Below are positions 8,897-61,810 of a stretch of 64,000 nt of DNA, in pieces (the stretch's first letter is position 1; every line of letters starts with the position of its first letter). The position numbers and the translations under genes were made by a program. A model generated the notes under the pieces. That model did no database searches. It worked only from the letters and a program-made list of their open reading frames with translations, and was not told the origin of the DNA. Source of the stretch: Mobula hypostoma (lineage: Eukaryota); the NCBI RefSeq assembly GCF_963921235.1, contig NC_086107.1, forward strand, positions 105,960,001 through 106,024,000, written 5' to 3'.

Positions 8897-9935
8897 TTTT
8901 TCTGTTATGTTTGCAAGAATGCGGTGGTACTGAAGTGTTTTCACCCTACATACACAGAGACGATTTGCAGTGCGGAGAAATCATAGTGACAAGGAATTTA
9001 AAAGCATTAGCAACTGCAGTATTATGTTGTAGACCTGCATATCATTAATAGTTAATCGAATATTAAAGTGTCTGTGCTGTAACATCATTATAAAGTATGC
9101 GTTTTTGTTTTCACCATTTGTGCCTTTCAAATGTTGAATATTTAAACATTAAATATTCCTGCAGATTTTTGACAAACTACACAGGCTAGAGTTACTGGGA
9201 ATGGTGATTCAGAAGAGAGGTAGCTGTACTGGTAGTGGAGAGGGAAATACAATGGGCACATTCCCTATTATGTCTCAGCATAGACCTCCCTCCGTGGGGT
9301 TGTTCCCAAATGTTCCCAAACATCCTGATGACCAAACTCCTTTCTGCTTCTCTCCCCCTCCAGTGGCAAATCCACCTCTGGTTTTAACAGCGTGTGATTG
9401 AAAGGTTCACAGCTGGCAGCTAGTTCTTACTCCTGAGTTCATGTCTACTAAAAATCCCTCTTTTCCCCAACTCGTGTTTGTAGTCCCGCAGACTCCACAG
9501 GGTCTTGACGTCCGGGCGTGGTTCCACCTGCGGCTTAGCAACCGTGGGGTCAGGTGGGGCACTGAAGGTCAAAGGTGAAGGAGCAGCAAGAGAGACACAG
9601 ACGAAGGGAGACCCACAATCCCACCTGAACCAGGCAGGGTCTTTCTTCACTCTTTTCACCTTTGACGGACACTTGTCGCATCCAGCTTCCAAGCACATCA
9701 CTGGGCGTGCAGGGCCGAAAATGCGTGCCAGAGACTGCGCTGAAAAGTGGGGCATCAGAGCACGACTTCCAAAGCACTTTCTGGGGGGGTCGGGGTGGGG
9801 GTGGTGAGATGAAAGAGGAAGAATGGCCAGATGCCTTGCCTTAGCCTCCCCCAGTAAGTAGTGTTAACTTTTCATATTTCCAGTAACCATATCACTCTGA
9901 CCACTGCCGGCTTTGACAAGAGAGATGCCTACACT

Positions 9936-10591
9936 CTGTGTGTGTGAGAGTGAGAGTGAGAGAGACTGAGAGAGAGAGAGTGAGACAGAGAGAGAGAGAG
10001 TGAGAATGAGAGAGAGAGTGAGAATATGAGAGAGAGAGAGAGAGAGAGTGAGAATATGAGAGAGAGAGAGAGAGTGAGAAACCTACACTGTGTTTGAGAG
10101 AGTGTGAGAATGTGATACCTACACTGTGAGAGTGAGAGTGTGAGTGTGTGTGTGTGTGTGTGAGTGTGTGTGAATGTGTGTGAGTGTGTGTGAATGTGTG
10201 TGTGTGTGAGTATGTGTGAGTGTGTGTGAATGTGTGTGTGTGTGTGTGAGTGTGTGTGAATGTGTGAGAGTGTGTGTGTGAGTGTGTGTGAGTGTGTGTG
10301 TGTGTGAGTGTGAGTGTGTGAGTGTGTGTGAGTGTGTGTGTGTGTGTGAGTGTGTGTGAATGTGTGTGAGTGTGTGTGAATGTGTGTGTGTGTGAGTATG
10401 TGTGAGTGTGTGTGAATGTGTGTGTGTGTGTGAGTGTGTGTGAATGTGTGAGAGTGTGTGTGTGAGTGTGTGTGAGTGTGTGTGTGTGTGTGTGTGTGAA
10501 TGTGTGAGAGTGTGTGTGTGTGTGAGTGTGTGTGAATGTGTGTGTGTGTGAGTGTGTGTGAATGTGTGAGAGTGTGTGTGTGTGTGAGTGT

Positions 10592-10638
<47 letters not shown>

Positions 10639-10653
10639 TGTGAGAGTGTGTGT

Positions 10654-10692
<39 letters not shown>

Positions 10693-10712
10693 ATTGAGAG
10701 AGAGAGAGAGAG
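9936..10712. repeat. Long compound (TG)n/(AG)n microsatellite
   Basis: About 780 bp of TG/AG dinucleotides punctuated by gaat and gagt. It produces the spurious His-Thr ORFs. Confidence 0.98.
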
Positions 10713-11056
10713 GTCACTCGTCAAGCACTCTTTACACCAGTGGTTCCCAACTTTTTTATGCCGAGGACCCCTAACATTAATCAAGGGATCCACGACCCCT
10801 AGGTTGGAAACCCCTCCTTTACACCCTCATCAGTGGTTCAATGTTTCCATTGATATGAAAATAATTAATAGTCGATCAAATATTAATCTGGCTGTGCTCC
10901 AGCATCATTGTAATGTATATGTTTTTGCTTCCATCAGTTATGGATCTTGGAGTTGCTGACGTTTGGATATTCCTTCGGTCTTCTGAAGACATACATGGGT
11001 TAGAGAGATACTGTTGCTAGAATTAGTTGACCAGAAACGTGATAGTTATGGGGAAG

Positions 11057-11435: not shown

Positions 11436-12170
11436 GGTCAATAATGCTCCCCCTGTTATATCTCAACATGGCCAAGCATCAGTGGGATTGTGGTGAGTCC
11501 CCAATTGCCCAAAGAGGTGAAAGTTTTCTCATCACAAAACTCCTTCCCTTTTTTTGTGTCTTCTCCCTACCCTGTAAAGGCATCCGTTAGTCTTGCGAGA
11601 CCATAGCTCTGCGCCTGGAAAGTCTTCACTCTCCAGGGCGCAGGCCTGGGCAAGGTTGTATGGAAGACCGGCAGTTGCTCATGCTGCAAGTCTCCCCTCT
11701 CCACGACACCGATGTTGTCCAAGGGAAGGGCATTAGGACCCATACAGCTTGGCACTGGTGCCGCCACAAAGCACTGTGTGGTTAAGTGCCTTACTCAAGG
11801 ACACAACATGTTGCCTCGGCTGGGGATCGAACTAGCAACCTTCAGATCACTAGTCGAATGCCTTAACCACTTGGCCACGTGCCCACAAGGGGGAATTAAA
11901 CCTTCAGCTCTAACCGTGCAAGCGTGTGGTTCAGGAGGCACTGAACTCTTATCCTGAGCCGGGCTGAATGCTTATTTTCTTTACCCTCTCTGTCTAAGAG
12001 GGAGGGATAAGAGATTGGTCCTCGGCCATTGAGATCAATTATCTGTTTCCTCTGCTTTGCCTTGCCTGGTGCATTACACTAACTTGATATTTTTCCAGTA
12101 ACTGTATTGCTCTGACCGGCACCTGCTTTGACAGGGGAGTGAGGGGTTGGGAGATTCTTCGTAATCACAC

Positions 12171-12336
12171 TCAGTATTTAGCATAGGAGGCATAGTAGTA
12201 GGGTCTGGGGTATCCATAGTAACCGTAGCCACAGCCTTTGCCATAGTATGAGTAGGGGTAATCCTTTCCGCAGTTCTCATCATCGTCACAGTATTCTCTG
12301 TGAAGTTCAACAGGGCCCCTATAGATCTCCCGGGCA
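12171..12336 (-). CDS. mgp: Terminal coding exon (Gla domain) of a Matrix Gla protein-like gene (probably the chondrichthyan Mgp2-type paralog)
   Basis: Minus-strand acceptor ttctttctgtgtgtttcAG (AG at 12338-12337), phase 2. The exon reads T+AREIYRGPVELHREYCDDDENCGKDYPYSYYGKGCGYGYYGYPRPYYYASYAKY-TGA. PVELHREYCDDDENC matches the MGP core PVHELNREACDDYRLC (ExxxExC-x5-C). Assignment to a specific paralog is inference. Confidence 0.88.
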
Positions 12337-12594
12337 CTGAAACACACAGAAAGAATCAGTTTTCTATCACAACTCTCACAGCACCAGGACATCACAATAA
12401 GCTGTAATAACAAGGGGAATACCATTGCCAGAAGAGGCACAGCCAGCAGCAAGGATTAGGGTAAGTGCAAGCAGGATTTTCACACTCACCCTGGGCAAGG
12501 CTAGGACTAGAGGTCATGGGTTAAGGGTGAAAGGTGAAATATTTAAGGGAGGGACAAGAGAGGGAACGTCTTCACTCAGGGTGTAATGAGGGTG

Positions 12595-13017
12595 CCTTCT
12601 CCGTGGATTGTCACCTTGTCGCGGTGGAGAAGCTTGTGTGGTCCTGTGATCCCGAGAGCGATGCCGTCTGGTGCTATGCTCCTGGTAGGGTCACCCATGG
12701 CGGTAAGGTTGAGGGTGAGGTCCCTGACAAAGAACAATCCAACCAAGACCTCAACGGTGGAACAGGCGGACGAAGTTACTTCGAACTCAACGGCTGTGAA
12801 GGCGGATGAAGGCTGCAACAAATCTATCAGCTCCAATCGTCGTGGTTTCCATGCCATTGGAATCAGCTGGTTGATTTGTGAAGTATCGTGTGCTTCTTGG
12901 AGTGCAACATCAAGTACACGTTAAACAAATACACGCACAGGCGTCTTCGCTCTGTGGGACACTTCTTCAGAACGAAGACCATCATCCTCGACCTCGAGGA
13001 TAGCCACGACGACGATG
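12595..13017 (+). mobile_element. RTE-derived short non-autonomous retroelement
   Basis: RTE-type 5' UTR (tgtcaccttgtcgcggtggag...gctatgctcctggtagggtc) and a (GAC/GAT)n tail. 10-bp TSD aatgagggtg at 12585-12594 and 13018-13027, inside a CR1 fragment. Confidence 0.7.
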
Positions 13018-13517
13018 AATGAGGGTGTGGAACGAGCTGCCTGTGGAAGTGATGGTTGTGGGTTCCGCAAAATTCTGCTCCTATGTCTTGTGTTTGGCTC
13101 TGTCTCCCTGAACACGACAATCATCAGGCTCCTGGCCTGGCATGCTATGGGGTGTATGGGGTGTCCAGGGAGTGATAGCATCTCTGGTGATGGGGCTTGT
13201 CGTGTCCATTCCAGGGCAGCTCACTCACTTTTGGTCCCCGCTGGACACGTGGCTCTCACCTGTGGCTCCAAGTAGCTGTTTGCACGCAACACTCTTCACC
13301 ACTCTCTGGGGAAATCAGTTCCTCCTCATCTCCATCCTAAGTCTACTCCCCCGAACCTCGAGGCTATGTTCCCCTAGTTCTAGACTCACCTACCAATGGA
13401 GACTCACCTCTAGTCTCACCTTACAGCACCTTTGACTCGATCAAAGCTTTTGCAGATCGCTTCAACTATTATTCGCTCTGTCACAACTGATGTAGTGCTG
13501 TCCATAAATATTCTGTG

Positions 13518-16500
13518 TTAGTGTTGGTGCTGGTAGCGAGTGGTCGTAACACCATGAGTAATATCATGAGTCAGCATGCAGTGCAGACTAGATCAATGCG
13601 TCTCGTCAGTATGGTAGTGAGGGACTTCTGCACTGTCTAAGACAGTAAAACCAAGCTCTCATCTGAATATTTAAGAATTTCTTATGCTCTGAACAAGTCG
13701 ATCACACAAATAGTTCAACGGTTCTAATTAATATCAGAGACTGTGTACAGTATACAGCCTGAAATTCTTACTCTTCACAGACATCCACAAAACAGAAGAA
13801 CAAATGACAGAAAAAACATAAGAACCCCAAAGCCTCCCACGCACAAGCAGCAACAAAGCATCAACCCTCCCCCTTATATTCCAGCAGAACGCATTAGCAA
13901 TCACACCACCCACTATACAAGCATCAGCAAACCCCCTCCCAAAGAGAGACCATGATCTACAGACCATCAGAAACCACCGTTCACCAAATAGTTCGACATG
14001 CCACAGGCTCTCTCTCTTTGTGGACTAGTTCTGTGTACCAAATGGCAGTAGACTTCCCTACTAATGCTTTTCAAGCAACTGAACATTTATTATGGAGTGA
14101 TTTCTGTGGAGTCGAACAGTCGCCGCCAAGCAACCATTTACAGCAATCTACACAAATCCAAAATTAAAGAGATTTTGCAGGTGCTGGAAATCCAGAGCAA
14201 CACACACAAAATGCTGAAGGAACTCAGTAAGTCGACGGAGGGGAATAAACGGTCGACGTTTGGTCAGTCTGGATAGTAGCATACCGGTTATTGTAGCGCT
14301 TTACAACACCGGCACTAAGACCGGGGGTTCAGTTCCTGCTGCTGTCTGTAAGGAGTTTGCACGTTCTTCCCCCTTCCTCTGGATGCTCCAGTTTCCTCTG
14401 GCATTCCCAAGCAGCATGGTAGCATTATACACCCAACTGTTGCTGAGTCATCAGAGAATTTCTGTTGTATCTATAATCTGAGGTATACAGGGTAAACAGG
14501 AAGGAGCCAACTGTGGGGCCCCAGTGCTGCTTATAGCCACGTCTGACACACATCTCTGAAGCCACACAGACTGCGGTCTGCCAGTCAGGTAGTCCATTAT
14601 CCAGGATACAATGGAAGTGCCAGCCTGCACTGAACGGAGCTTCTACCCCAGCAATGAGCACTGCATGGTACTGAAGGCACTTGAGAAATCATGATCCTCA
14701 CAGTGCTACCCTGCTTACCCAAATGGGAGTCAGCTCTGGTCAGCAGGTAGATGACAGCATCGTCAACTCCAGTGTGCTCCTGCACTTTGAACTAGAGGTG
14801 ATGTATTAATGGTGAAATGTTTAAGGGGAATACAAGGGGAAACTTCTTCACTAAGAGGGTGATGAGTATGTGATACAAGCCCCGAACGGAAGTGGTGGAA
14901 GAGGGCATGATTTAAGATAAATTAGCATAAATACATGGATGGGGGGGTGGTACGGTCTGGGTGCTGGTCGATGGGATTAAGCAAGATAATAGTTTGGAGA
15001 GATTAGATGGGCTGAAGGGCCTGTTTCTGTGCTGTGGTGTTCTTTGACTCTATGACTCTAGTTCAGGAATGTGAGGGGATACACTTAGGGGTGTAGAACA
15101 AGACAGGGGAAGTATCTTAAATGGCGAAGACACTTAGTGATGTGGAGAATCTAGGGGATCATAGACCTACCCTTAAAGGTTGCAGGAGAGAACAAGAAGA
15201 TGATTAAAATGAGCTACTGATGCACAGAGGAACAGGGAGGTTATGCTGCAGCTGTATACTGCCCTAGTTAGACCAGAGCTGCAGTGTTCTGTGCAGATCT
15301 GGTCACCAGATTACAGTACAGATACCACTGTGCTGGAGAGGGGGCAGAGGAGAATTATGACAACGTTACCAGGACTGGAAAATTGTAGCTTTTAGAAAAG
15401 ATGAGATCAGAACAGTTGTTTTTCTTCGGAACAGAAGAGACGGAGGGTGAGATTTAATTACAGAGTGCAGAATTATAGTGGGTCCACATAGAGACAACGA
15501 GGACTGTTTTCCTTCACAGGTAAGAGGGCTGGAGGAGGAGAAGGACAGAACTTATTTTCAGAGGGATGTGGGGCTGCAGAACTCGCTGCCTGGAAGGGCG
15601 ATGGAGGTAGAGACCACAGTGGCTCCACATAGAGATGAGAACTGGTCTTCCACCAAAGGGTCAACAGCCAGGAGGGCTTAAAGTAAATAGTGAGAGGATA
15701 AGCACACTTTCAGAGGGAGATTGGGTGTACAGCTCAGTGCCTGAAAGGGTGATGAAGTAGAAACGTCACTCTGAAAGGTACTTAGGTGCGAATTTGAAGA
15801 GGAGAACAGGCAGGGATATAGATCAAGTTCTGGTGGGTGGTATTAGTATGGACTGTATCTTTGGTACAATGGGACAAATAATCTATGATTCTACTATTTT
15901 GTATATATTTTAAAATTTTATTTAGAGATTCCGTACAGTAACAGGCCCTTCTGCCCAATCACACCCATGTGACCAATTAGCGTACTAGCCCGCACGACTT
16001 TGGACTGTGGGGGGAAACAGGGACACACGGAGGAAACCCATGCGGTCACAGGGAGAACGTACCAGCTCCTGACAGACAGCGATAGGATTGAACACCAATC
16101 GCTGACATTTTAAAAATGATACACTAGCCTCTATGCGAACTTATTGCCCAGATTATGTAAAACTATGATTGTTCCAATCGGAAATCTAATAGAATGGATG
16201 CATCATCTATCAACCGCCTCTGCCCTGTTGAGACATTATTCTGTTTATACCAGCAGATCTTCCTACCTAGACTCCCCATCACTGTCACTCAGACCAGGGA
16301 ATAAAGCAGGCAATGCAAGGAGGGAGATCGCATTTGGTTTATTTATTTATTTCTGTTAAATCCGCAAGAGTACACTGGCGCGTGCATATTGGAGTGCTTT
16401 TAGACTAGATTCAGAGAAATGATTTACAGTGAGAAGGCATCAAAGAGACAAGGGAGAGATTATAAAAACAGTGGTAACTGCAACGGCGTGCATATTATTA

Positions 16501-18165
16501 ATGATTCACAAATACTAATCTGCCCGTGCCCTAACGTCGCTATAATGTGCGTGTTTTTGCTTCCATCAGCCATAGCCTTTGGAGTTTCTGAAGTGTAAAT
16601 ACCCCTTCAGACCTTTGACAAACTATGCAGGCTAGAGAGATACTGTTACTGGGAAGGGTGGATCAGAGAAGCAAAGCTATGCTGCGTTAGTGGTGAGGAA
16701 GCTACAACGGGCGCTTTCCCCGTTGTATCTCAGTGTTGTCTCAGATGGACGTCCATCCGAATGAGTCCCCCATCCCAATAGAGATGTCATTGCCCTTCTC
16801 ACCAAAAACCTTCCCCCTTTTTATCACCTTCTCTCTGGCCGACTATGAGGAGATGGAGTAACTGCTGAGGAGTCATACTTCCCGCTCTAGCTGTGCAAGG
16901 ACATGATTCAAAAGTTCACTCCCCCGTCTCTCTCTCTCACTCACTCTGGAGTTGGCCTGACTGGTCACTTTTCTTTTTCCTCTCACGTTTGCCAGAGGAG
17001 AGGAGAAGATGGCGGCGCAACGCAGCTCACAGCGGCCACTCCGGTGGTGATGTCTGTTATCTGTCAAGTAGGGTGCCGTGCACCATCCTGACTTGATGGA
17101 GATGGACGCGAGAGCACGGAGGAACATCTGGTGAAACTTCTGAAATGCCTGTTTCGCCGCTGCTGCTACTGTGTGGTCTGAAATCTCCGGAGGGGAAGGC
17201 CCCGAGTTCTCGGCTTTGCTTGTTGCTTGGCGGCCGGGGTGGGGTCGAAGCGCTCGGCAGAGGATGGTGCTCAGTGTCGAAGGGCTGGTCGGAGGCTCGA
17301 AGTTTTCCGATGGACTCAGAGTCCGCTGAGGTTGGGTGCTTCCAATGGTGCTGCGTCGGCAAGTTGGCGGCGCTTGGAGGTTCATGGCGGGGAGAGTTTC
17401 TCCCTTCTGCCGTCTGCGTGAGATGATGAGGCTATCAGGACTCTGAAACTTTTTTTTACTGTGCCCATGGTCTGCTCTTTATCAAATTACAGTATTGCTT
17501 TGCACTGTTGTAACTATATGTTATAATTATGTGGTTTTTGTCAGTTTTAGTCTTGGTTTGTCCTGTGTTTCTTGTGATATCATACCAGAGGAACATTGTG
17601 TCATTTTTTAATGCATGCATTTCTAAATGACAATAAACAAGGACTGAGTGTTCTCATAATCTAAATCTTCCGATTTCCGAACCAGTTGCGAGTTGTGTGG
17701 GTAAAAAGGCTAATGGCTAAAGGCATGGAGTGGATATCTCCGATAGTGGAAGAGTGTAGGACTCAGTGTCTGAAAGGGTGATGAAGTAGGAGTGTCACTT
17801 TCAGAGGTACTTCTATATGAACCCAGAACAGAACGACGGTGGTGAGTCTGTGGAGGACAAGTCATACTTGATGCAGAGTTTAATAGGTTCTGATCGGTAA
17901 AGGTGTCAAAGAGAGAAGGCAGAAAAATGGGGTTGAGAGGGATAACAAATCAGCCATGATGGAATGATAGAGCAGATGCAATGGGCCGAATGGCCTGATT
18001 CTGCTCCTATGTCTTATGGTCAACAGCCCAATAATTCGGCCTCACCTTCCCTGGTAAGCCATATTTGCTATTTCCAGTAACTGCATCAATCTGACCACTG
18101 CCTGCTCTGACAGTGGGTGGGGGAGGAGATTCTTTGTAATCACGCTCAGTGTTTGGCAGAGCTGC
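13518..18165. repeat. Local segmental duplication, copy B (inside intron 3 of the MGP-like gene), retaining the last codons and stop of the terminal exon
   Basis: 18070-18160 aligns with 12090-12185 (tttccagtaactg...ggagattctt-gtaatcac-ctcagt-ttt-gca). 16490-16830 aligns with 10860-11020 plus 11440-11560 and with 9040-9350. Confidence 0.85.
17000..17645 (+). mobile_element. CpG-rich non-autonomous retroelement; an inverted partial copy lies at 26930-27218
   Basis: gaggagaagatggcggcgcaa...ggatggtgctc is shared with the reverse complement of 26930-27218. The LINE-like 3' end carries tgacaataaa. Confidence 0.65.
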
Positions 18166-19150
18166 AGTCAGCAAGAAACGGGCCTTTTAGCTCATCAAGT
18201 CCACACCGAATATCAAACACCCTTTTTACACCAAAATCCCATGTTCCCAACAAAAGCTCATTTTAACCTTCCATATCCACACCCAGAGCGTATGCTGTAG
18301 TGTCTTTCTTTAACATCTCGTCTGAAAAAGCACACCTCTACAGTATAGCACTCCTTCAGTGCTAACATTGACAGCTTAAATCTTATTTTTTCTGATCAAG
18401 TCTCCAGAGTGGGACTCAAACCCACAATCTGTTGATTCCAGGGAGTGCCCTCTATTGAGCTAAGATCAGCAAAAAGAGTCAAACATATGGATTCAGTCCT
18501 GACGAAGGGTTCCAGCCCGAAACATTGACTGATCGTTTCCACGGATGCTGCCCGACCTGCTAAGTTCCTCCAGCGTGTTGTGAGTGTTGCTTTGATCCCA
18601 GCATCTGCAGAGTATTTTGTATCAAACATATGGAAGTTCTTTGGCTATATAACACCTTTGATTCAATAGAAGTACCTTAGCAATAATTTAAAATTACTCC
18701 TCATAAAGATGTGTTAGGATACGGGACCAGAGTGTGGGAAATGGCTCCCACAGGTCCACGATCTAAGGATCACCACTCCTGAGGTTTGGAATGACACAAC
18801 GCACACAAAACGCTGGAGGAACTCAGCAGGTCGGGCAGCATCCACGGAAATGAATAAACAGTCGACGGCTTGGCCCAGAGATCCTTCTTCAGGACTGGAA
18901 AGGAAGGGAGAGTGAAAAGGTAGGGTGGGGGGAGGGGAAGGAGGACTAGCTGGCAGGTAATAGGTGAAACCAGGTGAGGAGGAAAGGTGAAGGACCGGAG
19001 AAGAAGGAATCTGATAGGAGAGAAGAGTGGACCGATGACAAGACGTTGGAATGATGCCCCCCAACAAGGAAATTCCTGGGGATGTCACTGGGACAGTAAT
19101 AAATTGTCAGGGGCTTCAAAACAGAGAGGGAAGGGTGTGTCAGGCCCTAC

Positions 19151-19241
19151 CTCTCGTACGATGGTACGTGGTGGTAGCACCCATAGGCATGTCTCTTTCT
19201 CCTCACAAAGTTGTTTGCCGACTGCGTGCCCATGAAGGTTT
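19151..19241 (-). CDS. mgp: Internal exon (propeptide: gamma-carboxylase docking site and furin site) of the MGP-like gene
   Basis: Acceptor ctttcttatttcctgtAG, donor GTaggg, 91 nt, phase 1 to 2. It reads (E)TFMGTQSANNFVRRKRHAYGCYHHVPSYE(S). F-x5-ANxF matches MGP FINRRNANTF. It joins in frame to both neighbouring exons. Confidence 0.88.
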
Positions 19242-19352
19242 CTACAGGAAATAAGAAAGTGCTCTGGGTTAATGAGCAACCAATCTACACAATGTAACTG
19301 GGATCTGCACCCCTACCCTAATGCCAACCATGCCTGCTTTACCTTGTTAAAT

Positions 19353-19971
19353 ACATCCAGTGGTCTCTTTATTAGCTACCCCCTGTACCTAATAAAGTGG
19401 CCACTGAGTGTAGGTTCATGGTCTTCCACTGCTGTAGCCCGTCCACTTCAAGGTTTGACATGTTGTGCGTTCAGAGATGCTCTTCTGTACACCACTGTTG
19501 TAACGTGTCATTATTTGAGTTACTGTCTCCTGCCTGGCCATTCTCCTCTGACCTCTCTCATTAACAAGGTGTTTTCTTCCACAGATCTGCCGCTCGCTTG
19601 GTTTTTTTTCTGTTCTTTGCACTAATCTCTGTAAACTCTAGAACAGGGGTTCCCAGACCCTCGGTTAATGGTAGGGGCCCATAACCATAAAAAGGTTGGG
19701 AATTTGGGAACCCCTGCTCTAGAGACTTCTGTGTGTGAAAATCCCAGGAGATCAGCAGTTTTTGAGATACTCAAACCACCCCATCTGGTACCAACAATCA
19801 CTGAGATCACGTATCTTCCCCATGCTGATGACTGGTCCGAACAACAACTGAACCTCTTGACCTTCACTGCATGTGTTTATGCATTGAGTTGTTGTGCCAT
19901 GATTGGCTGATTAGATATTGGCATTAAACGAGCAGGTGCCCAGGTGTACCGCATAAAGTGGTCACTGAGTG
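19353..19971 (-). mobile_element. Tc1-derived element with a nested hAT mini-MITE (~19644-19716)
   Basis: Same family as 55451-55998. The insert has caggggttccca...tgggaacccctg ends. Confidence 0.8.
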
Positions 19972-20159
19972 CGAGAAGATGACAGTAATGACCAGGTCGT
20001 TTCAGTCTCCAGGGCAGACAAGAGCTGCGCCTCTGTGTTGAAGGAGCTGCTTACAGCTGGGTCATGGTCATGATTTAACATTGGCTGCATATCCCAGGAT
20101 TGGGAGGGGAATTTGGGATCCTTCATTTCCTTATTGCTGGAGGCATGGGCCACTGGGAA

Positions 20160-21105
20160 GTCAGTGTGTGGGATTGTCTCACAGTGAGGGTCACTGTGTG
20201 TGTGTGACCTGTTCCCCCAGTGAGGGTCAGTGTGTGTGTGACCTGTTCCCCCAGTGAGGGTCAGTGTGTGTGTGTGTGTGACCTGTTCCCCCAGTGAGGG
20301 TCAGTGTGTGTGTGTGGGATCTGTTCCCCCAATGAGGGTCAGTGTGTGTGTGTGTGACCTGTTACCCCAGTGAGGGTCAGTGTGTGTGTGACCTGTTCCC
20401 CCACTGAGGGTCAGTGTGTGTGTGGGACCTGTTCCCCCAGTGAGGGTCAGTGTGTGTGTGACCTGTTTCCCCAGTGAGGGTCAGTGTGTGTGTGTGGGAC
20501 CTGTCCCCCAGTGAGGGTCAGTGTGTGTGGGACCTGTTCCCATAGTGAGGGTCAGTGTGTGTGTGTGTGACCCATCCCCCAGTGAGGGTCAGTGTGTGTG
20601 TGTGTGTGACCTGTTCCCCCAGTGAGGGTCAGTGTGTGTGTGAGACCTGTTCCCCCAGTGACGGTCAGTGTGTGTGTGTGTGACCTGTTCCCCCAGTGAG
20701 GGTCAGTGTGTGTGTGTGTGACCTGTTCCCCCAGTGAGGGTCAGTGTGTGTGTGACCTGTTCCCCCAGTGAGGGTCAGTGTGTGTGTGTGGGACCTGTTC
20801 CCCCAGTGAGGGTTAGTGTGTGTGTGACCTGTTCCCCCAGTGAGGGTCAGTGTGTGTGTGAGACCTGTTCCCCCAGTGAGGGTCAGTATGTGTGTGACCT
20901 GTTCCCCCAGTGAGGGTCAGTGTGTGTGTGACCTGTTCCCCCAGTGAGGGTCAGTGTGTGTGTGACCTGTTCTCCCAGTGAGGGTCAGTGTGTGTGTGTG
21001 ACCTGTTCCCCCAGTGAGGGGCAGTGTGTGTGGGACCTGTCTGCTAGTGAGGGTCAGTGTGTGTGTGGTACAGTCCCCCAAGACGGTCAGTGTGTTTGTG
21101 TGGGA
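20160..21105. repeat. Minisatellite, unit CAGTGAGGGTCA(GT)nGACCTGTTCCCC (~32-40 bp, roughly 25-27 units), in intron 2 of the MGP-like gene
   Basis: Directly visible tandem units with a variable-length internal GT tract. Confidence 0.97.
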
Positions 21106-21978
21106 AAGGACCCTGGTAAGTGCCAAGAGATGGAGAACAACTGCATCATGAAAAAACAGGAAAAGAAATTTGGTTATCAGAATGTAACCAGTTCTGTGGG
21201 AATAATTTTGACAAGGAGGACGTCTTGCAGGTCTGCTAAGGAGCTGGTGCAGGAACAATGGGCTGCAAATTGGCCAGTCTACAATCAGCAGGAGTCGAAT
21301 GGAGGCCAGGGTGACGTCAGAGGCAGAAGAGAGAGTTTATGTCAAACGGATTGCGTTTCTGTTATTAAATTAGCGCCAAATGACTGGGATTGCTGTTTTC
21401 ATACAATACAGCATGTGCGACATGATCTCAGCCAACAGACAACAGGTCAAGACATTTAGCAGAGAAAGTCAGCTCTTCCAGAATAATATGGTCACGTCAT
21501 TGAGTAATTAGATGGTAGTTGAAGATCACAATATGAGATTAGCGAGAATTGAAAGACTGTCATCTTGAGAATTACGTAGCATCATTACAGGACAGTGGTT
21601 TCAGTGTGCGGTTGTGATGACATCAGCTGGTTTTAACTGCCCTTTGAAAACTTTCTCTCTTCCAGTGTAGCTGGCAGTTTCTTCCCCCGGTGATTTATAC
21701 ATCACTCAACCTGCACTTGGAAGCTGACACACTGTCCCTTCACAGGAGGTAGCAAAGTCCCAACTCCTGCCCAACCCCAGTCCCTAGCTCTCACCCCACT
21801 CACCCTTGCCCCCTCTCTGTGCCCTTTGGCAACCCCTTCATGCTTGGCTGAGATGAGATCCCCCTAGGCACTGCCCCTCTCACTGTCCTTAGCTTCTCGT
21901 TTCCTGTCCACTCACTAGCTCTCCACATCATGCACTGTTATAACCTTCAGTGTACAAACTCTTGGCAGATGTACTGAC

Positions 21979-22014
21979 CTTCTTTCTCGGCTGATCCGAT
22001 GAATTCTTTGGGGG
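21979..22014 (-). CDS. mgp: Short internal exon (exon 2 equivalent) of the MGP-like gene
   Basis: Strong acceptor tttctctctctctcttccAG, donor GTcagt, 36 nt, phase 1 to 1. It reads xPKEFIGSAEKE(E). Size and phase fit the short second exon of MGP/BGP genes. Confidence 0.75.
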
Positions 22015-22962
22015 CTGGAAGAGAGAGAGAGAAACAAATAGAATTCAAAGTACAGCTGGCAGAGTCCACCAAATCCTCAACCAGTTTAAAGAAGTGCAGT
22101 GGGGGGCACTTACAGAGTCCAAAGACCTAGATACAATACTGACGGGTTCTGTCCATGTAGAGTTTCATTGTGGACTTCAGAAAGGGTAAGAGGAGGGAAA
22201 ACACACCAGTCCTCATAGGGGGATCAGAAGTGGAAAGAGTGAGCAATTTCCGTAAGACCATAAGACCACAAGACAAAGGAGCAGAAGTCGGCCATTCGGC
22301 CTATTGTCTGCTCCGCCATTTTACCATGAGTTGATCCATTCTCCCATTTAGTCCCATTCCCCCGCCTTCTCACCATAACCTTTGATGCCCTGGCTACTCA
22401 GATACCTATCAATACACCCAATGGCCTTAAATACACCCAATGACTTGGCCTCCACTGCCGCCCGTGGCAACAAATTCCATAGATTCACCACCCTCTGGCT
22501 AAAAAAATTTCAAGTCCCTGGGTGTCAATATCTCTGAGGATCTAATCTGGGCCTAACATATTGATGCAGCTACAAAAATAGCACAACAGTGGCTATATTT
22601 CATTAGGAGTTTGAGGAGATTTGGTATGTCACCAAAGTGCACATTTCTACAGATGAACCATGGACAGCATTCTAACTGGCTGCATCACCGTCTGGAAGGG
22701 GGTCGGGGGGCATTGCACAGGATCAAAATAAGCTGCAGAAATTTGTAAACTCAGTCAGCTCCATCATGGCCAGTAGCCTCTCCAGCATCCAGGGCATCTT
22801 TAAGGAGTGATGCCTCAGGAAGGCAGTGTCCATCTTTAAGGACTCTCATCACCTAAGCCATGTCCTCTTCTCATTGCTACCATCAGGGAGGAGGTGAAAG
22901 CAACACTCACAACACGCTGGAGGAACTCAGCAGGTCGGGCAGCATCCATGGAAACGCTGACT

Positions 22963-41851: not shown

Positions 41852-44800
41852 CAGCAGTCCCCAACCACCGGGCCGCGGACCGGTACCGGGCTGCAGAGCA
41901 TGTGCTACCGGGCCACGAGGAAACAATATGATTTGGCGATACGAGTCAGCTGCACCTTTCCTCATTCCCTGTCACGGCCACCGTTGAGCCATTACGCACG
42001 CGAGGTCATTACCCGCGGTTTATCCATGTCAGCGTGGGAAGAAGACCAACTCCTCGAGCTTGCAAATGACGGCGGGCTGAAAAGTATGTTTGACATAACA
42101 TCTCTGCCGGCATTCTGGATCCAAGTCAAGGCTAAATATCCTGAGATAGCCAGGAAAGCACCGACAACGTTGCTTCAATTTCCAACATATAGAAACATAT
42201 AGAAACATAGAAAATAGGTGCAGGAGTAGGCCATTCGGCCCTTCGAGCCTGCACCGCCATTTATTATGATCATGGCTGATCATCCAACTCAGAACCCCGC
42301 CCCAGCCTTCCCTCCATACCCCCTGATCCCCGTAGCCACAAGGGCCATATCTAACTCCCTCTTAAATATAGCCAATGAACTGGCCTCAACTGTTTCCTGT
42401 GGCAGAGAATTCCACAGATTCACCACTCTCTGTGTGAAGAAGTTTTTCCTAATCTCGGTCCTAAAAGGCTTCCCCTTTATCCTCAAACTGTGACCCCTTG
42501 TTCTGGACTTCCCCAACATCGGGAACAATCTTCCTGCATCTAGCCTGTCCAATCCCTTTAGGATCTTATACGTTTCAATCAGATCCCCCCTCAATCTTCT
42601 AAATTCCAACGAGTACAAGCCCAGTTCATCCAGTCTTTCTTCATATGAAAGTCCTGCCATCCCAGGAATCAATCTGGTGAACCTTCTTTGTACTCCCTCT
42701 ATGGCAAGGATGTCTTTCCTTAGATTAGGGGACCAAAACTGCACACAATACTCCAGGTGTGGTCTCACCAAGGCCTTGTACAACTGCAGTAGTACCTCCC
42801 TGCTCCTGTACTCGAATCCTCTCGCTATAAATGCCAGCATACCATTCGCCTTTTTCACCGCCTGCTGTACCTGCATGCCCACTTTCAATGACTGGTATAT
42901 AATGACACCCAGGTCTTGTTGCACCTCCCCTTTTCCTAATCGGCCACCATTCAGATAATAATCTGTTTTCCTATTTTTGCCACCAAAGTGGATAACTTCA
43001 CATTTATCCACATTAAATTGCATCTGCCATGAATTTGCCCACTCACCCAACCTATCCAAGTCACTCTGCATCCTCTTAGCATCCTCCTCACAGCTAACAC
43101 TACCACCCAGCTTCGTGTCATCTGCAAACTTGGAGATGCTGCATTTAATTCCCTCATCCAAGTCATTAATATATATTGTAAACAACTGGGGTCCCAGCAC
43201 TGAGCCTTGCGGTACCCCACTAGTCACCGCCTGCCATTCTGAAAAGGTCCTGTTTATTTCCACTCTTTGCTTCCTGGCTGCTAACCAATTCTCCATCCTC
43301 ATCAATACCTTACCCCCAATACCATGTGCTTTAAGTTTGCACACTAATCTCCTGTGTGGGACCTTGTCAAAAGCCTTTTGAAAATCCAAATATACCACAT
43401 CCACTGGTTCTCCCCTATCCACTCTACTAGTTACATCCTCAAAAAATTCTATGAGATTCGTCAGACATGATTTTCCTTTCACAAATCCATGCTGACTTTG
43501 TCCAATCATTTCACCGCTTTCCAAATGTGCTGTTATCACATCTTTGATAACTGACTCCAGCAGTTTCCCCACCACCGACGTTAGGCTAACCGGTCTATAA
43601 TTCCCCGGTTTCTCTCTCCCTCCTTTTTTAAAAAGTGGAGTTACATTAGCCACCCTCCAATCCTCAGGAACTAGTCCAGAATCTAACGAGTTTTGAAAAA
43701 TTATCACTAATGCATCCACTATTTCTTGGGCTACTTCCTTAAGCACTCTAGGATGCAGACCATCTGGCCCTGGGGATTTATCTGCCTTCAATCCCTTCAA
43801 TTTACCTAACACCACTTCCCTACTAACATATATTTCACTCAGTTCCTCCATCTCACTGGACCCTCTGTCCCCTACTATTTCTGGAAGATTATTTATGTCC
43901 TCCTTAGTGAAGACAGAACCAAAGTAATTATTCAATTGGTCTGCCATGTCCTTGCTCCCCATAATCAATTCATCTGTTTCTGTCTGTAGGGGACCTACAT
44001 TTGTCTTTACCAGTCTTTTCCTTTTTACATATCTATAAAAGCTTTTACAGTCAGTCCTTTTTACATCGCTATAAAAGCTTTTACAGTCAGTCCTTTTTAC
44101 ATATCTATAAAAGCTTTTACAGTCAGTCTGCGATGAATGTAACAAAAACTAAATTGAGGAATAGACTGGTCATAAGGAACTCCATTCGAGTATCACTGTC
44201 TCCCATCACCCCTCGATGGCACCGTCTTGTTGCAGGGAAACAAGCCCAGGGCTCCCACTGATTCAGCAATATTGGTGTGTTGTAATGATTTTATATGTTC
44301 ATACGGGGAAAATATGTGCTGTGTGTTTAATATCCAAACGTTACTTAAAATGTTATGATGCTATTGACTTATATAACCATATAACAATTACAGCACGGAA
44401 ACAGGCCATCTCTGCCCTTCTCGTCTGTGCTGAACGCTACTCTCACCTCGTCCCACCGATCTGCACTCAGCCCATAACCCTCCATTCCTTTCCTGTCCAT
44501 ATACCTATCCAATTTTTCTTTAAATGATAATATCGAACCTGCTTCTGCCACTTCTACTGGAAGTTCGTTCAACACTTACTTCAAGCTTCCCTGTCCTCCC
44601 CTGATAATTGACTTATCACTATATTCATGCAAGGAAAATATGCGCTGTGTGTTTAATATTAAATTTGTTAGATAAACCCTTTTAGAAACAAAATTGAGTG
44701 TACTAGCCACTTATCACCGATATTACGGTCGTGGTTAACACCTCCCCCCCGTGAACGGAATCGCCAAAAACAATTTGTAGAAAAAATAATCGGTACGTGC

Positions 44801-53720: not shown

Positions 53721-55450
53721 TTGAGGGCTGTTGAGCGGAGGAAGGAGCTTGGTCGAAGAGCAGGGCCCAGGGTGTGGGGTATCCCGATGCTGGGAGATGG
53801 CGATAATGATCCCGATGGGAGGGGTGCGGAGCGGATCGGCTGTCCCAGAGAAGGGTGAGAGGCCGGACCCCAACAATCAGGTCTGAGGCACGGCTCCGTC
53901 TGGGCGAACGTCGCTACGGCCGCACTCCCATTAAAGCGGCCTGTCGGAGGCTCAATTTATTTTTGTGGCCAGGGCAAATTTTCCAAAAAAGGAAAACTAT
54001 TTTGTATCAGAAGTCAAGTGTTCCGCTGGTTTTAATTGTTTCAGTCAATATATTTAGACCGCGGCCCCAGGGATGTCTGTGGATGTGGACGTGGACGGGG
54101 CTCAGACGCCACAAAGCCCAAGGACATTTCTCACATCCAGTTACACCGCCGGCGGGGTCGGGAGTTTAAACAGAAGTCCTTGCTCCTACTACTGATTAAC
54201 TTCTGGAGAAGTCCTTGTTACAACATCCCCCCGCTGGACACTACCCCAGCGGAGACCGACTGCTAACCCGCCCCCAGCACCCTCAAACGCGCCCCGAAAT
54301 CAGTCTCCGTGCGCCGCAGGATGCAGATTATAAACCAGGAGCCCCGGCTGGGTTTCACCCTCTGTAAACAAGATGTTGGGGGAACCCGGCTGTCCAGGCA
54401 ATGGAGATTCCAGATGAAGACGTCAACTGCCCGTTTCAAGATTCGAGATACAGGATTGCCTTTTTTTTGGTCACTCATCAGCGTAAAGGAGAACAAAATG
54501 ATTGGTACTCCGGTTCAGATGCAGCATTAAAAAGCACGATAAGATAAAGAACACAATATCAATAAATACATAAGATTAGCTTCTATAGACGGACGAGGGT
54601 ATACATAATCGGCATCAGGGTTAATATCACCGGCATATGTCGTGAAATTTGTTGTCTTTGCGGCAGCGGTACAATTAAATGCATAATAATAGAAAGAAAA
54701 AAGCTGGATTACAGTAAATATATATTAAATTGTTAAATTAAATAAGTAGTGCAAGACTAGAAATAAAAAAGTAGTGAGATGGTGTTCATGGATTCAATGT
54801 CCATTCAGAAATCGGGTGGGGAAGAAGCTGTTCCTGAATCACTAAGTGTGGGCCTTCAACCTTCTGTACCTCCTCCCTGATGGTAGCAATGAGAACAGGG
54901 CATGTCCTGGGTGATGGGGGGTTCTTAATGATGGCTGCCACCTTTCAGGGGCATCGCTCCTTGAAGATGGATGCTACCTACGAAGGCTAGTGCCCGTGAT
55001 GGAGCTGACTAAGTTTACAACTTTCTGCAGCTTACTTGGAACCTGTGGTGTAGTTCCCCCCTCCCCGTACACACTAGACGGACATGCAGCCATTTACTAT
55101 GCTCTTCCCAGTGCATCGGTAGAAATTGGCCAGTGTCTGGTGACAAACCTCCCCAAACTCCTCATGAAATATAGCCACTGTCATGCCTTTTTTGTAGCTG
55201 TGTCGACATGTTGAGCCCAGGTTAGACCCTCAGAGATATTGACACCCGGGAACTTGAAATTGCTCACTGGCAGATTTCACTCTGTTAGAAGGGTTTGACA
55301 AAGACTCAAGACCATTGCTGCATTTTCATAGTGATTAATCTGACTCAGCATCCAGGGAGGGATATGCACCCTTTTTACCCACTCAGACCAATATCTCAGT
55401 CCTTGCCTCCTGAGCATCTACTGCCCATCCCATTCGCTGATTTCACACAA

Positions 55451-55998
55451 CCACTCAGTGGCCACTTTATGAGGTACACCTACACACCTGCTCGTTAACG
55501 CAAATATCTAATCAGCCAATCTTTCCAGGAAAGCATACAGGCGTAGTCAAGAGGTCCAATTGTTGTTCAGACCAAACATCAGAATGGGGAAGAACTGTGA
55601 TCTTGAGTGACTTTGACCGTGGAATGACTGTTGGTGCCAGATGGGGTGGTTTGAGTATCTCAGAAACTGCTGATCTCCTGGGATTTTCATGCACAACAGT
55701 CTCTAGAGGTTACAGAGAATGGTGTGAAAAACAAAAAAATACCCAGTTCTGTGGGCATGAAAGCCTTGTTGATGGGAGAGGTCAGAGGAGAATGGCCAGT
55801 CTGGTTCAAGCTGACAGGAAGGTGACAGTAACCCAAGTAACCACACGTTACAACAGTGGTGTGCAGCAGAGTGTCTCTGAGCACACAACGTGTCGCAACT
55901 TGAAGTGGATGGGCTACAGCAGCAGAAGACCACAGACAGACACTCGGTGGCCACTTCATGTGGTACGAGAGGCACAAAATAAAGTGGGTACTGAGTGC
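55451..55998 (+). mobile_element. Tc1/mariner-derived non-autonomous element
   Basis: TIR cactcagtggccactttat... and a Tc1 N-terminal HTH remnant LSDFDRGMTVGARWGGLSISETADLLGFSCTTVSR...KWMGYSSRRP. Confidence 0.85.
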
Positions 55999-56058
55999 AC
56001 ACTCTGTTTAAATTATGCTGGCCCATCATGATGAGCATCTCCACCATCCTGTCACGGG

Positions 56059-60894: not shown

Positions 60895-61810
60895 TAAAGT
60901 TCAAAGTAAATGTATTATCAAAGTATATATATATCACCATATCCAACCCTGAGATTCATCTTCGTGTGGGCATACACAACAAATCAATGGAATAATAATC
61001 ATAATAGAATCGATGGAAGACTGCCCAACTTGGGTGTTCAAGCAGAATGCAGAAGACAACAAACTGTGCAATTGCAAATAAAAAGAAATAATAATAATAA
61101 ATAAATAAGAAATAAATATCAAGAACATGAGACGAGGAGTCCTCGAAAATGAGTCTATAGGTTGTGGGAACATTCCAATGACGGGGCAAGTGAAGTTGAA
61201 TGAAGTTCAAGAGCCTGATGGTTGAGGGATAGTGACTGTTCCTGATGGTGTGAAGTCCTGAGGCTTCTGTACCTTCTTCCTGACGGCAGCAGCAAGAAAA
61301 GAGCATGACCTGGGCGGTGGGCATCGCTGATTATGGATGCTGCTTTGCTTGCTGCCACAACGCTTTGTGTAGATGTGCTCAATGGTGGGGAGAGTCTTAC
61401 CCATGACGGACTGGGCTCTATCCACTGTTCTTTGTAGGATTTTCTGTTTGAGGGTACCGGTGCTGCAGCCAGTCCATACACTCTCCACTACACATCTACA
61501 GAAATTTGTCAAAGTATCAGGTGTCATGCTGAATCTTCGCAATCTCCTAAGGGAGTAGAGATGCGACCGTGCTTTCTTCATAATTGCACTTACATGCTGG
61601 GCCAAGATGTAGTTCTCTGAAATGATAACACTGAGGAACTTAAAGTTGCTGATCCTCTCCACCTCTGATCCGAGGACTGGCTTAGGAAACCCTGGTTTCC
61701 TCTTCCTGAAGTCAATAATCTGCTTCTTGGTCTTGCAGACACCGAGTGAGGGGTTGTTTTTGTGGCACCGCCCAACCGGATTTTCAATTTCTCTCCTGTA
61801 TGCTGATTAG
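60895..61810 (-). mobile_element. Decayed Rex1/Babar-like LINE 3' region (related fragments at 6835-7345, 22165-23295, 30575-31205, 40720-41420, 54615-55265)
   Basis: ERISNFKFLSVII...KKARSHLYSLRRLRRF...LLPSGRRYRSLRT, with a 3' aataaatttactttgaact-type tail. Confidence 0.75.

Follow-up and report, generated by a model that had tools for sequence, protein, structure and literature searches.

Does the window, a stretch of 64,000 nucleotides from the ray Mobula hypostoma (contig NC_086107.1, positions 105,960,001 to 106,024,000 of the forward strand), contain a gene for a gamma-carboxyglutamate (Gla) protein, and if so, which member of the family is it? An earlier note on this DNA had proposed that three short exons on the minus strand splice to a peptide that combines the docking site of matrix Gla protein (MGP) with the furin-cleaved propeptide of osteocalcin. 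Our analysis indicates that they are very probably exons 2-4 of Mgp2, a second matrix-Gla-protein paralog that is specific to cartilaginous fishes. Leurs et al. (2021, Front Genet 12:620659; PMC8006282) report three genes of this kind in cartilaginous fishes, Mgp1, Mgp2, and Bgp. As described there, Mgp2 is a four-exon gene in which exon 1 encodes the signal peptide, exon 3 the docking site, and exon 4 the Gla core, and its product carries an ANxF docking site plus an unexpected furin site. The published core is E-x3-E-x-C, the C-terminal part aligns poorly and was missed by InterPro and SMART, and the protein is characterized as lacking the phosphorylation domain. For batoids, the same report gives exon 4 as the only part known in 2021.

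Exon structure and orthology

The three exons have pyrimidine-rich AG acceptors throughout, GT donors follow exons 2 and 3, and the two introns measure 2737 nucleotides (exon 2/3) and 6814 nucleotides (exon 3/4). Spliced together, they amount to 293 nucleotides, made up of 2 nucleotides, 96 codons, and a stop, and the frame is open. Exon 2 encodes the beginning of the pro-region, while the carboxylase docking site is encoded by exon 3, as are the furin site and residues 1-13 of the predicted mature peptide. The exon positions, AG/GT borders, and phases (1-1, 1-2, 2-stop) that the earlier note had given were all reproduced, and its spliced peptide agrees with the translations of the single exons (P0001 for exon 4 and P0002 for exon 3). 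A search of RNA data listed no match to exon 4. Contigs of three sequencing runs, whose type was guessed, offered repeat cover only with no Mgp2 junction, and they are uninformative on expression.

A HMMER search of 1.84 billion representative proteins returned three matches. The best of them, P0004 (114 residues, E = 2.8e-12, 67% identity), is a protein of Cetorhinus maximus (XP_078388118.1) that the database names 'uncharacterized protein'. Its 90% cluster contains another 'uncharacterized protein' from Mustelus asterias (XP_078060749.1) and a 'Gla domain-containing protein' from Chiloscyllium punctatum (UniRef). The other two matches (E = 2.2e-5) are long repeat proteins of 422 and 1375 residues, aligned over low-complexity stretches only and with no collinear match. 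Compared with the three sharks, the window peptide is identical at 71/94, 72/94, and 69/93 positions (75.5, 76.6, and 74.2%); the shark proteins, which represent three orders, are 86-88% identical to each other. A hand count against the catshark Mgp2 sequence in the supplement of PMC8006282 gives 53 identities in the first 70 aligned residues (~76%). The protein search that the earlier note had suggested for the spliced peptide thus recovers shark orthologs at 74-77% identity, and its assignment to a Mgp2-type paralog of cartilaginous fishes is supported by the P0004 match and by the identity to shark and catshark Mgp2.

Searching the window with P0004 by tblastn recovers the three exons in the same order as in the protein (exons 2, 3, and 4 at E = 1e-3, 1.3e-14, and 3.7e-22), and each match stops at the proposed splice border. 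For exon 2, the alignment shows 11 identities among the 13 encoded residues when the Ala of the split codon is included. Across the 3.48 Gb of the genome, exon 4 (E = 5.7e-13) and exon 3 (E = 1.6e-9) stand apart from the only other place listed (E = 6.2), and exons 2-4 are the only Mgp2-like locus of this genome. Searches for homologous proteins found none for the exon 4 peptide P0001 or for P0003, and P0004 found only itself.

A profile built from the three shark Mgp2 proteins matches pre-pro-osteocalcin among PDB sequences (9mqb_P, E = 1.1e-4; 9bur_B, E = 1.2e-4), and the same profile reaches matrix Gla protein (9nub_A) at E = 0.4. In the alignment to 9mqb_P, the signal peptide, the propeptide, and the stretch up to the C-x5-C loop are all collinear, and the furin R-x-x-R sites coincide. 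Within this alignment, F-x5-ANNF pairs with the propeptide F...Q segment of pre-pro-osteocalcin, and RRKR matches the RPRR of osteocalcin.

Motifs and composition of the predicted peptide

The motifs F-x5-ANNF and RRKR and the Gla core are all present (Table 1). RRKR is invariant in all three shark orthologs. The note had counted only one SxE; there are two, SAE (exon 2) and SYE (exon 3), of which SYE is invariant in the three shark orthologs and SAE is not. No S-x-E-S-x-E phosphoserine cluster occurs in exon 2. A point against the assignment to Mgp2 is the lack of a Pfam Gla domain: matches to PF00594 number 19 in the genome, none of them at the Mgp2 locus, and searches at E up to 10 find no Pfam family for the exon 3 and exon 4 peptides or for the three shark Mgp2 proteins. 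The figure of 68 residues that the note gave for the product is correct as a count from RRKR, while the cleavage that would release such a peptide is a prediction. These 68 residues include 18 Tyr (26%), 8 Gly, and 4 Cys, and of the 33 residues from the closing Cys of the loop (12270-12272) onward, 13 are Tyr and 6 are Gly. For exon 4, an AlphaFold2 model from a four-row alignment was unusable, with a mean predicted local distance difference test score of 44.2 and a predicted template modeling score of 0.15.

Table 1. Mapped features of the predicted Mgp2 gene and of the surrounding DNA. Positions are window coordinates unless a contig is named; a slash marks an exon border, and nt stands for nucleotides.
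Feature	Position	Strand	Details
Mgp2 exon 2	22014-21979	minus	36 nt, phase 1 to 1; acceptor ...ttccag/, donor AAG/gtcagt
Mgp2 exon 3	19241-19151	minus	91 nt, phase 1 to 2; acceptor ...cctgtag/, donor GAG/gtaggg
Mgp2 exon 4	12336-12171	minus	166 nt including stop TGA 12173-12171; acceptor ...gtttcag/
F-x5-A-N-N-F, presumed vitamin-K-dependent gamma-glutamyl carboxylase recognition site	19236-19207	minus	exon 3
RRKR, furin/proprotein-convertase consensus	19203-19192	minus	exon 3
Minimal Gla core E-x3-E-x-C-x5-C	12308-12270	minus	exon 4; two conserved Glu, disulfide loop
Gly/Tyr-rich C-terminal tail	12269-12174	minus	exon 4
Candidate first exon P0009	87262-87127 (L004:3262-3127)	minus	outside the window; unique, signal-peptide-like
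Bgp gene	C45:105537001-105560000 and, probably, 105595001-105605000 (about -421.5 to -355 kb)	minus	
High-copy repeat, not part of Mgp2	22159-22250		immediately 5' of exon 2; 1542 or more first-look candidates in the genome
Long interspersed nuclear element (LINE) reverse transcriptase, RVT_1	42292-44148	minus	619-residue open frame, E = 3.7e-32
Tc1/mariner-type helix-turn-helix (HTH_Tnp_Tc3_2)	55441-56028	plus	E = 1.6e-4, below Pfam cut-off
ALKBH8_N-like LINE tail	61210-61806	minus	Pfam

The search for exon 1

The signal peptides of shark and chimaera Mgp2 are very alike (M-R-T-L-I-[LV]-L-x-L-C...), and the search for a corresponding exon 1 reached 162 kb 5' of exon 2. Several candidates were rejected. 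The one at 36715-36652 is a repeat, for which 3559 or more first-look candidates occur genome-wide, that at 29991-29928 has repeat-contig cover and a second copy at +69031, and an 'MRT...' frame with a GTCAGT donor at 22215-22144 lies inside the high-copy repeat upstream of exon 2. Candidates at 140280, 58366, and 2033 have no signal peptide on inspection. Three one-mismatch matches to the signal-peptide pattern, on contigs C68 and C73, belong to frames that stop within 11-18 residues.

The only unique signal-peptide-like first exon found upstream is P0009, located on the same strand about 65 kb from exon 2. Its core is hydrophobic, and a TATAAT sequence occurs about 105 nucleotides before the ATG. 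Phase-1 donors follow codon 17 (GAG/GTGATC) and codon 45 (CAG/GTAGGA), at 87211 and 87127. Both end in G, and either would therefore recreate the Ala codon that the orthologs share where exons 1 and 2 meet. Between P0009 and exon 2 there is no docking or Gla exon of the Bgp or Mgp type. P0009 bears hardly any resemblance to the signal peptides of the sharks, and an ESM Atlas search with it gave no usable match. We consider the odds about even that P0009 is the Mgp2 first exon and is joined to exon 2 across a 65-kb intron. It is possible that it represents a replacement of the original Mgp2 first exon, or that it is the start of another gene.

Alternative readings of the locus

The three exons might be chance open frames between chance GT and AG dinucleotides, and the shortness of exon 2, with its weak score when taken alone, is the one feature that fits this idea. 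Its probability appears negligible because exons 3 and 4 have very small tblastn E-values, the matches are collinear with the ortholog, and similarity ends exactly at the splice borders. Given the cleavable propeptide, the locus could instead be the Bgp (osteocalcin) ortholog rather than an Mgp paralog. The furin site past the docking site is osteocalcin-like, and the shark Mgp2 profile scores osteocalcin above MGP. However, the true Bgp of this genome is found at another place on the contig and has a full Gla helix and a K-R-P-R-R docking exon, whereas the window peptide has a Gly/Tyr tail instead of the helix and is three-quarters identical to shark Mgp2. This makes a Bgp ortholog at the window locus very improbable.

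Other observations weigh against a complete Mgp2 gene and would fit a decaying or 5'-truncated relic, in which exons 2-4 are left and the signal-peptide exon and secreted product have been lost. A MRTLIL-type exon is absent from the minus strand of the window above 22014, from the 80 kb on either side of the window, and from a further 40 kb upstream. Genome-wide, the pattern M-R-T-L-I-L-L-x-L-C has no exact match and 27 one-mismatch matches, none of them on this contig, and the counts at up to two mismatches are at the level of a reversed-pattern control (439/463 versus 409/462). The high-copy repeat abuts exon 2, and no AATAAA or ATTAAA occurs in the 3.2 kb past the stop codon. The start of exon 4 was compared by eye with eight Mgp2 sequences (five from the PMC8006282 supplements and three stored proteins), and five residues that these eight have in common are replaced in the window copy: one Val by Ala, another Val by Leu, a Lys by Arg, and two Gly by Asp. 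Cys takes the place of two conserved Tyr in the window peptide, and its identity to the sharks is lower than the identity among sharks of three orders. On the other hand, the 96 codons are open, three acceptors and two donors are all canonical, and F-x5-ANNF, RRKR, E-x3-E-x-C-x5-C, and SYE are intact. The substitutions are mostly conservative. P0009 offers a unique candidate first exon with a TATAAT box and two phase-1 donors, and the same relaxed scan (9/11 hydrophobic residues) of the opposite strand of 264 kb gave no convincing candidate among five matches. We judge a relic to be unlikely, and we retain the assignment of these exons to Mgp2.

Bgp and neighboring genes

Linkage with Bgp, and with Erp27 and Ddx47, is one criterion for chondrichthyan Mgp2. 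Bgp is linked to the window locus. A match to the Bgp Gla-core pattern occurs at C45:105538452-105538475, on the same minus strand and about 0.43 Mb downstream of the Mgp2 stop. The last Bgp exon, which starts at L025 position 1538, is complete and has an osteocalcin-type Gla helix, with the core C-E-S-F-Y-P-C-D and the end Y-F-G-N-Y-Y. A docking exon 1.3 kb upstream of this Gla exon ends in K-R-P-R-R (~L025 position 2859), and an acidic exon lies farther upstream. An exact match to C-E-x-Y-Y-P-C-D at C18:92285883 was rejected as a chance occurrence in a 17-residue frame. Ddx47, sought by helicase motifs only, was not found in a range that extended 80 kb past the window on the downstream side and 120 kb on the upstream side, and no second Gla-type exon is present over the same distances.

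A 10-kb sample farther upstream (C45:105595001-105605000) contains minus-strand micro-exons that encode K-V-I-G-S-R-E-D-D and E-N-E-S-x-x-D-T-K-G. These peptides closely match the pre-docking region of catshark Bgp (supplement 6, PMC8006282), and the acidic micro-exons are therefore probably part of Bgp, which would have a hugely expanded pro-region of repeated exons; this assignment was partly checked. Catshark Bgp is reported to have 13 exons (PMC8006282), and it thus already shows a tendency toward an expanded pro-region.

On the minus strand between Mgp2 and Bgp, a gene for a secreted protein occupies about -32.8 to -46.3 kb. A TATAAAAG box accompanies its first exon (L013:7153-7210), which encodes a signal peptide and finishes in phase 1. 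The gene also includes two phase-1 exons with a high content of Gly, Tyr, and Asn; one of its exons lies at L014:7172-7423. An exon of about 1.1 kb encodes about 340 residues of phosphophoryn-like (Asp-Ser-Ser)n, and since it ends at a consensus donor (AGG/GTGAGT), the gene continues beyond it. A search for phosphophoryn in cartilaginous fish found nothing in the literature collection used.

Repeats and transposons

The window is otherwise repeat DNA. A Pfam search of 102 of the 105 open reading frames of at least 100 residues found transposon domains only; the three frames left out are of low complexity and fall at 9895-10826, in a (CA/TG)n-type run at 9.9-10.8 kb that reads as His-Thr repeats. 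The repeat at 22159-22250 contains by chance the 'MRT...' frame that could be mistaken for exon 1, its listed matches span query positions 10-102, and very deep repeat cover extends over 22124-22787. A tRNA-derived element resembling a short interspersed nuclear element lies on the minus strand at 11600-11880, 290-570 nucleotides past the Mgp2 stop, with deep repeat-contig cover, and it may be inside the Mgp2 3' untranslated region. Upstream of the window, at about +75.9 to +79.7 kb, a tandem array of several kb reads as G-E-W-C-C-V-C-G-W-C units.

Proposed function and significance

The Mgp2 product is predicted to be a small secreted prepropeptide whose signal peptide would be encoded by exon 1, outside the window. 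In the endoplasmic reticulum, the F-x5-ANNF segment of the pro-region would dock the vitamin-K-dependent carboxylase, and furin-type convertases in the Golgi would then cut at RRKR to give the mature peptide of 68 residues. This peptide would present two to three candidate gamma-carboxy-Glu residues around the C-x5-C loop, the conserved S-Y-E, and the Tyr/Gly-rich tail. Carboxylation, furin cleavage, and secretion are proposed here by analogy with MGP, osteocalcin, and clotting-factor propeptides. The arrangement of propeptide and furin site is homologous in layout to that of osteocalcin, which supports a mechanism of docking followed by propeptide removal.

The earlier note had suggested that the peptide may act in mineralization. 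In catshark, however, Mgp2 expression is described as very strong in the mesenchyme around the ceratotrichia, weaker in unmineralized tooth buds, and not in mineralizing cartilage, and neofunctionalization of Mgp2 was proposed from this pattern (PMC8006282). This published pattern makes the extracellular matrix of unmineralized collagenous fin fibers and tooth buds the most likely site of action of the peptide, and a role in cartilage mineralization is less likely. In the literature collection used, searches on shark Mgp2 and on ceratotrichia together with Gla proteins found nothing relevant beyond PMC8006282.

One more specific idea is that the Tyr-rich mature Mgp2 peptide could be a component of elastoidin. 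Elastoidin is described as consisting of collagen plus a noncollagenous substance, rich in tyrosine, of shark fin fibers, which has been attributed to actinodins (PMC13120675, PMC6497306). The words elastoidin, tyrosine, and actinodin are absent from Leurs et al. (PMC8006282). We regard such a role as a quite improbable one. If true, it would explain the very strong expression of catshark Mgp2 in ceratotrichia-forming cells and the presence of a Gly/Tyr tail that takes the place of the Gla helix. It would also explain why, in a ray lineage with reduced ceratotrichia, the gene evolves fast and its ancestral first exon is lost or replaced.

Both the Mgp2 gene and its hybrid MGP/osteocalcin features are already in print (PMC8006282), and there is therefore nothing new in the finding itself. 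In particular, the combination of docking site and furin site has been known for Mgp2 since 2021, as has the four-exon structure, and the value of the locus as a discovery is small. Its value for annotation is modest, as database orthologs still bear such names as 'uncharacterized protein'. Exons 2-3 of the ray copy are additional batoid data beyond exon 4; what this copy contributes otherwise is its lineage-specific changes and, at the 5' end, a single candidate for exon 1. The surroundings of the locus, with the probable expansion of the Bgp pro-region and the (Asp-Ser-Ser)n gene between Mgp2 and Bgp, are more useful than Mgp2 itself.

Comparison with known systems

The ray copy resembles other chondrichthyan Mgp2 genes in the placement of the docking site (exon 3) and of the Gla core (exon 4), in the motifs ANNF, RRKR, and E-x3-E-x-C-x5-C, and in a Gly/Tyr-rich tail, the lack of an N-terminal phosphoserine cluster, and a Gla domain that is invisible to Pfam. 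It differs from them in that its signal-peptide exon is unrecognizable, in five changes at otherwise invariant exon 4 positions, and in a mature peptide with four Cys, which arises through two Tyr-to-Cys changes. Its exons 2-4 fit the four-exon architecture of the family, and, as in MGP and Mgp1, the docking motif is ANxF and the Gla core includes a C-x5-C loop. In MGP, the docking site stays in the mature protein, exon 2 encodes an S-x-E-S-x-E phosphoserine cluster, and a full Gla helix forms the C-terminal part, whereas ray Mgp2 has a furin site, lacks the cluster, and has a Gly/Tyr tail in place of this helix. The order of elements is like that of osteocalcin (Bgp): a signal peptide, which is seen in shark Mgp2, is followed by a carboxylase-recognition propeptide, an R-x-[KR]-R site, and the Gla core. 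The similarity to osteocalcin ends at the loop, past which Mgp2 lacks the osteocalcin helix (D-x-L-A-x-x-I-G-F/Y...Y-F-G).

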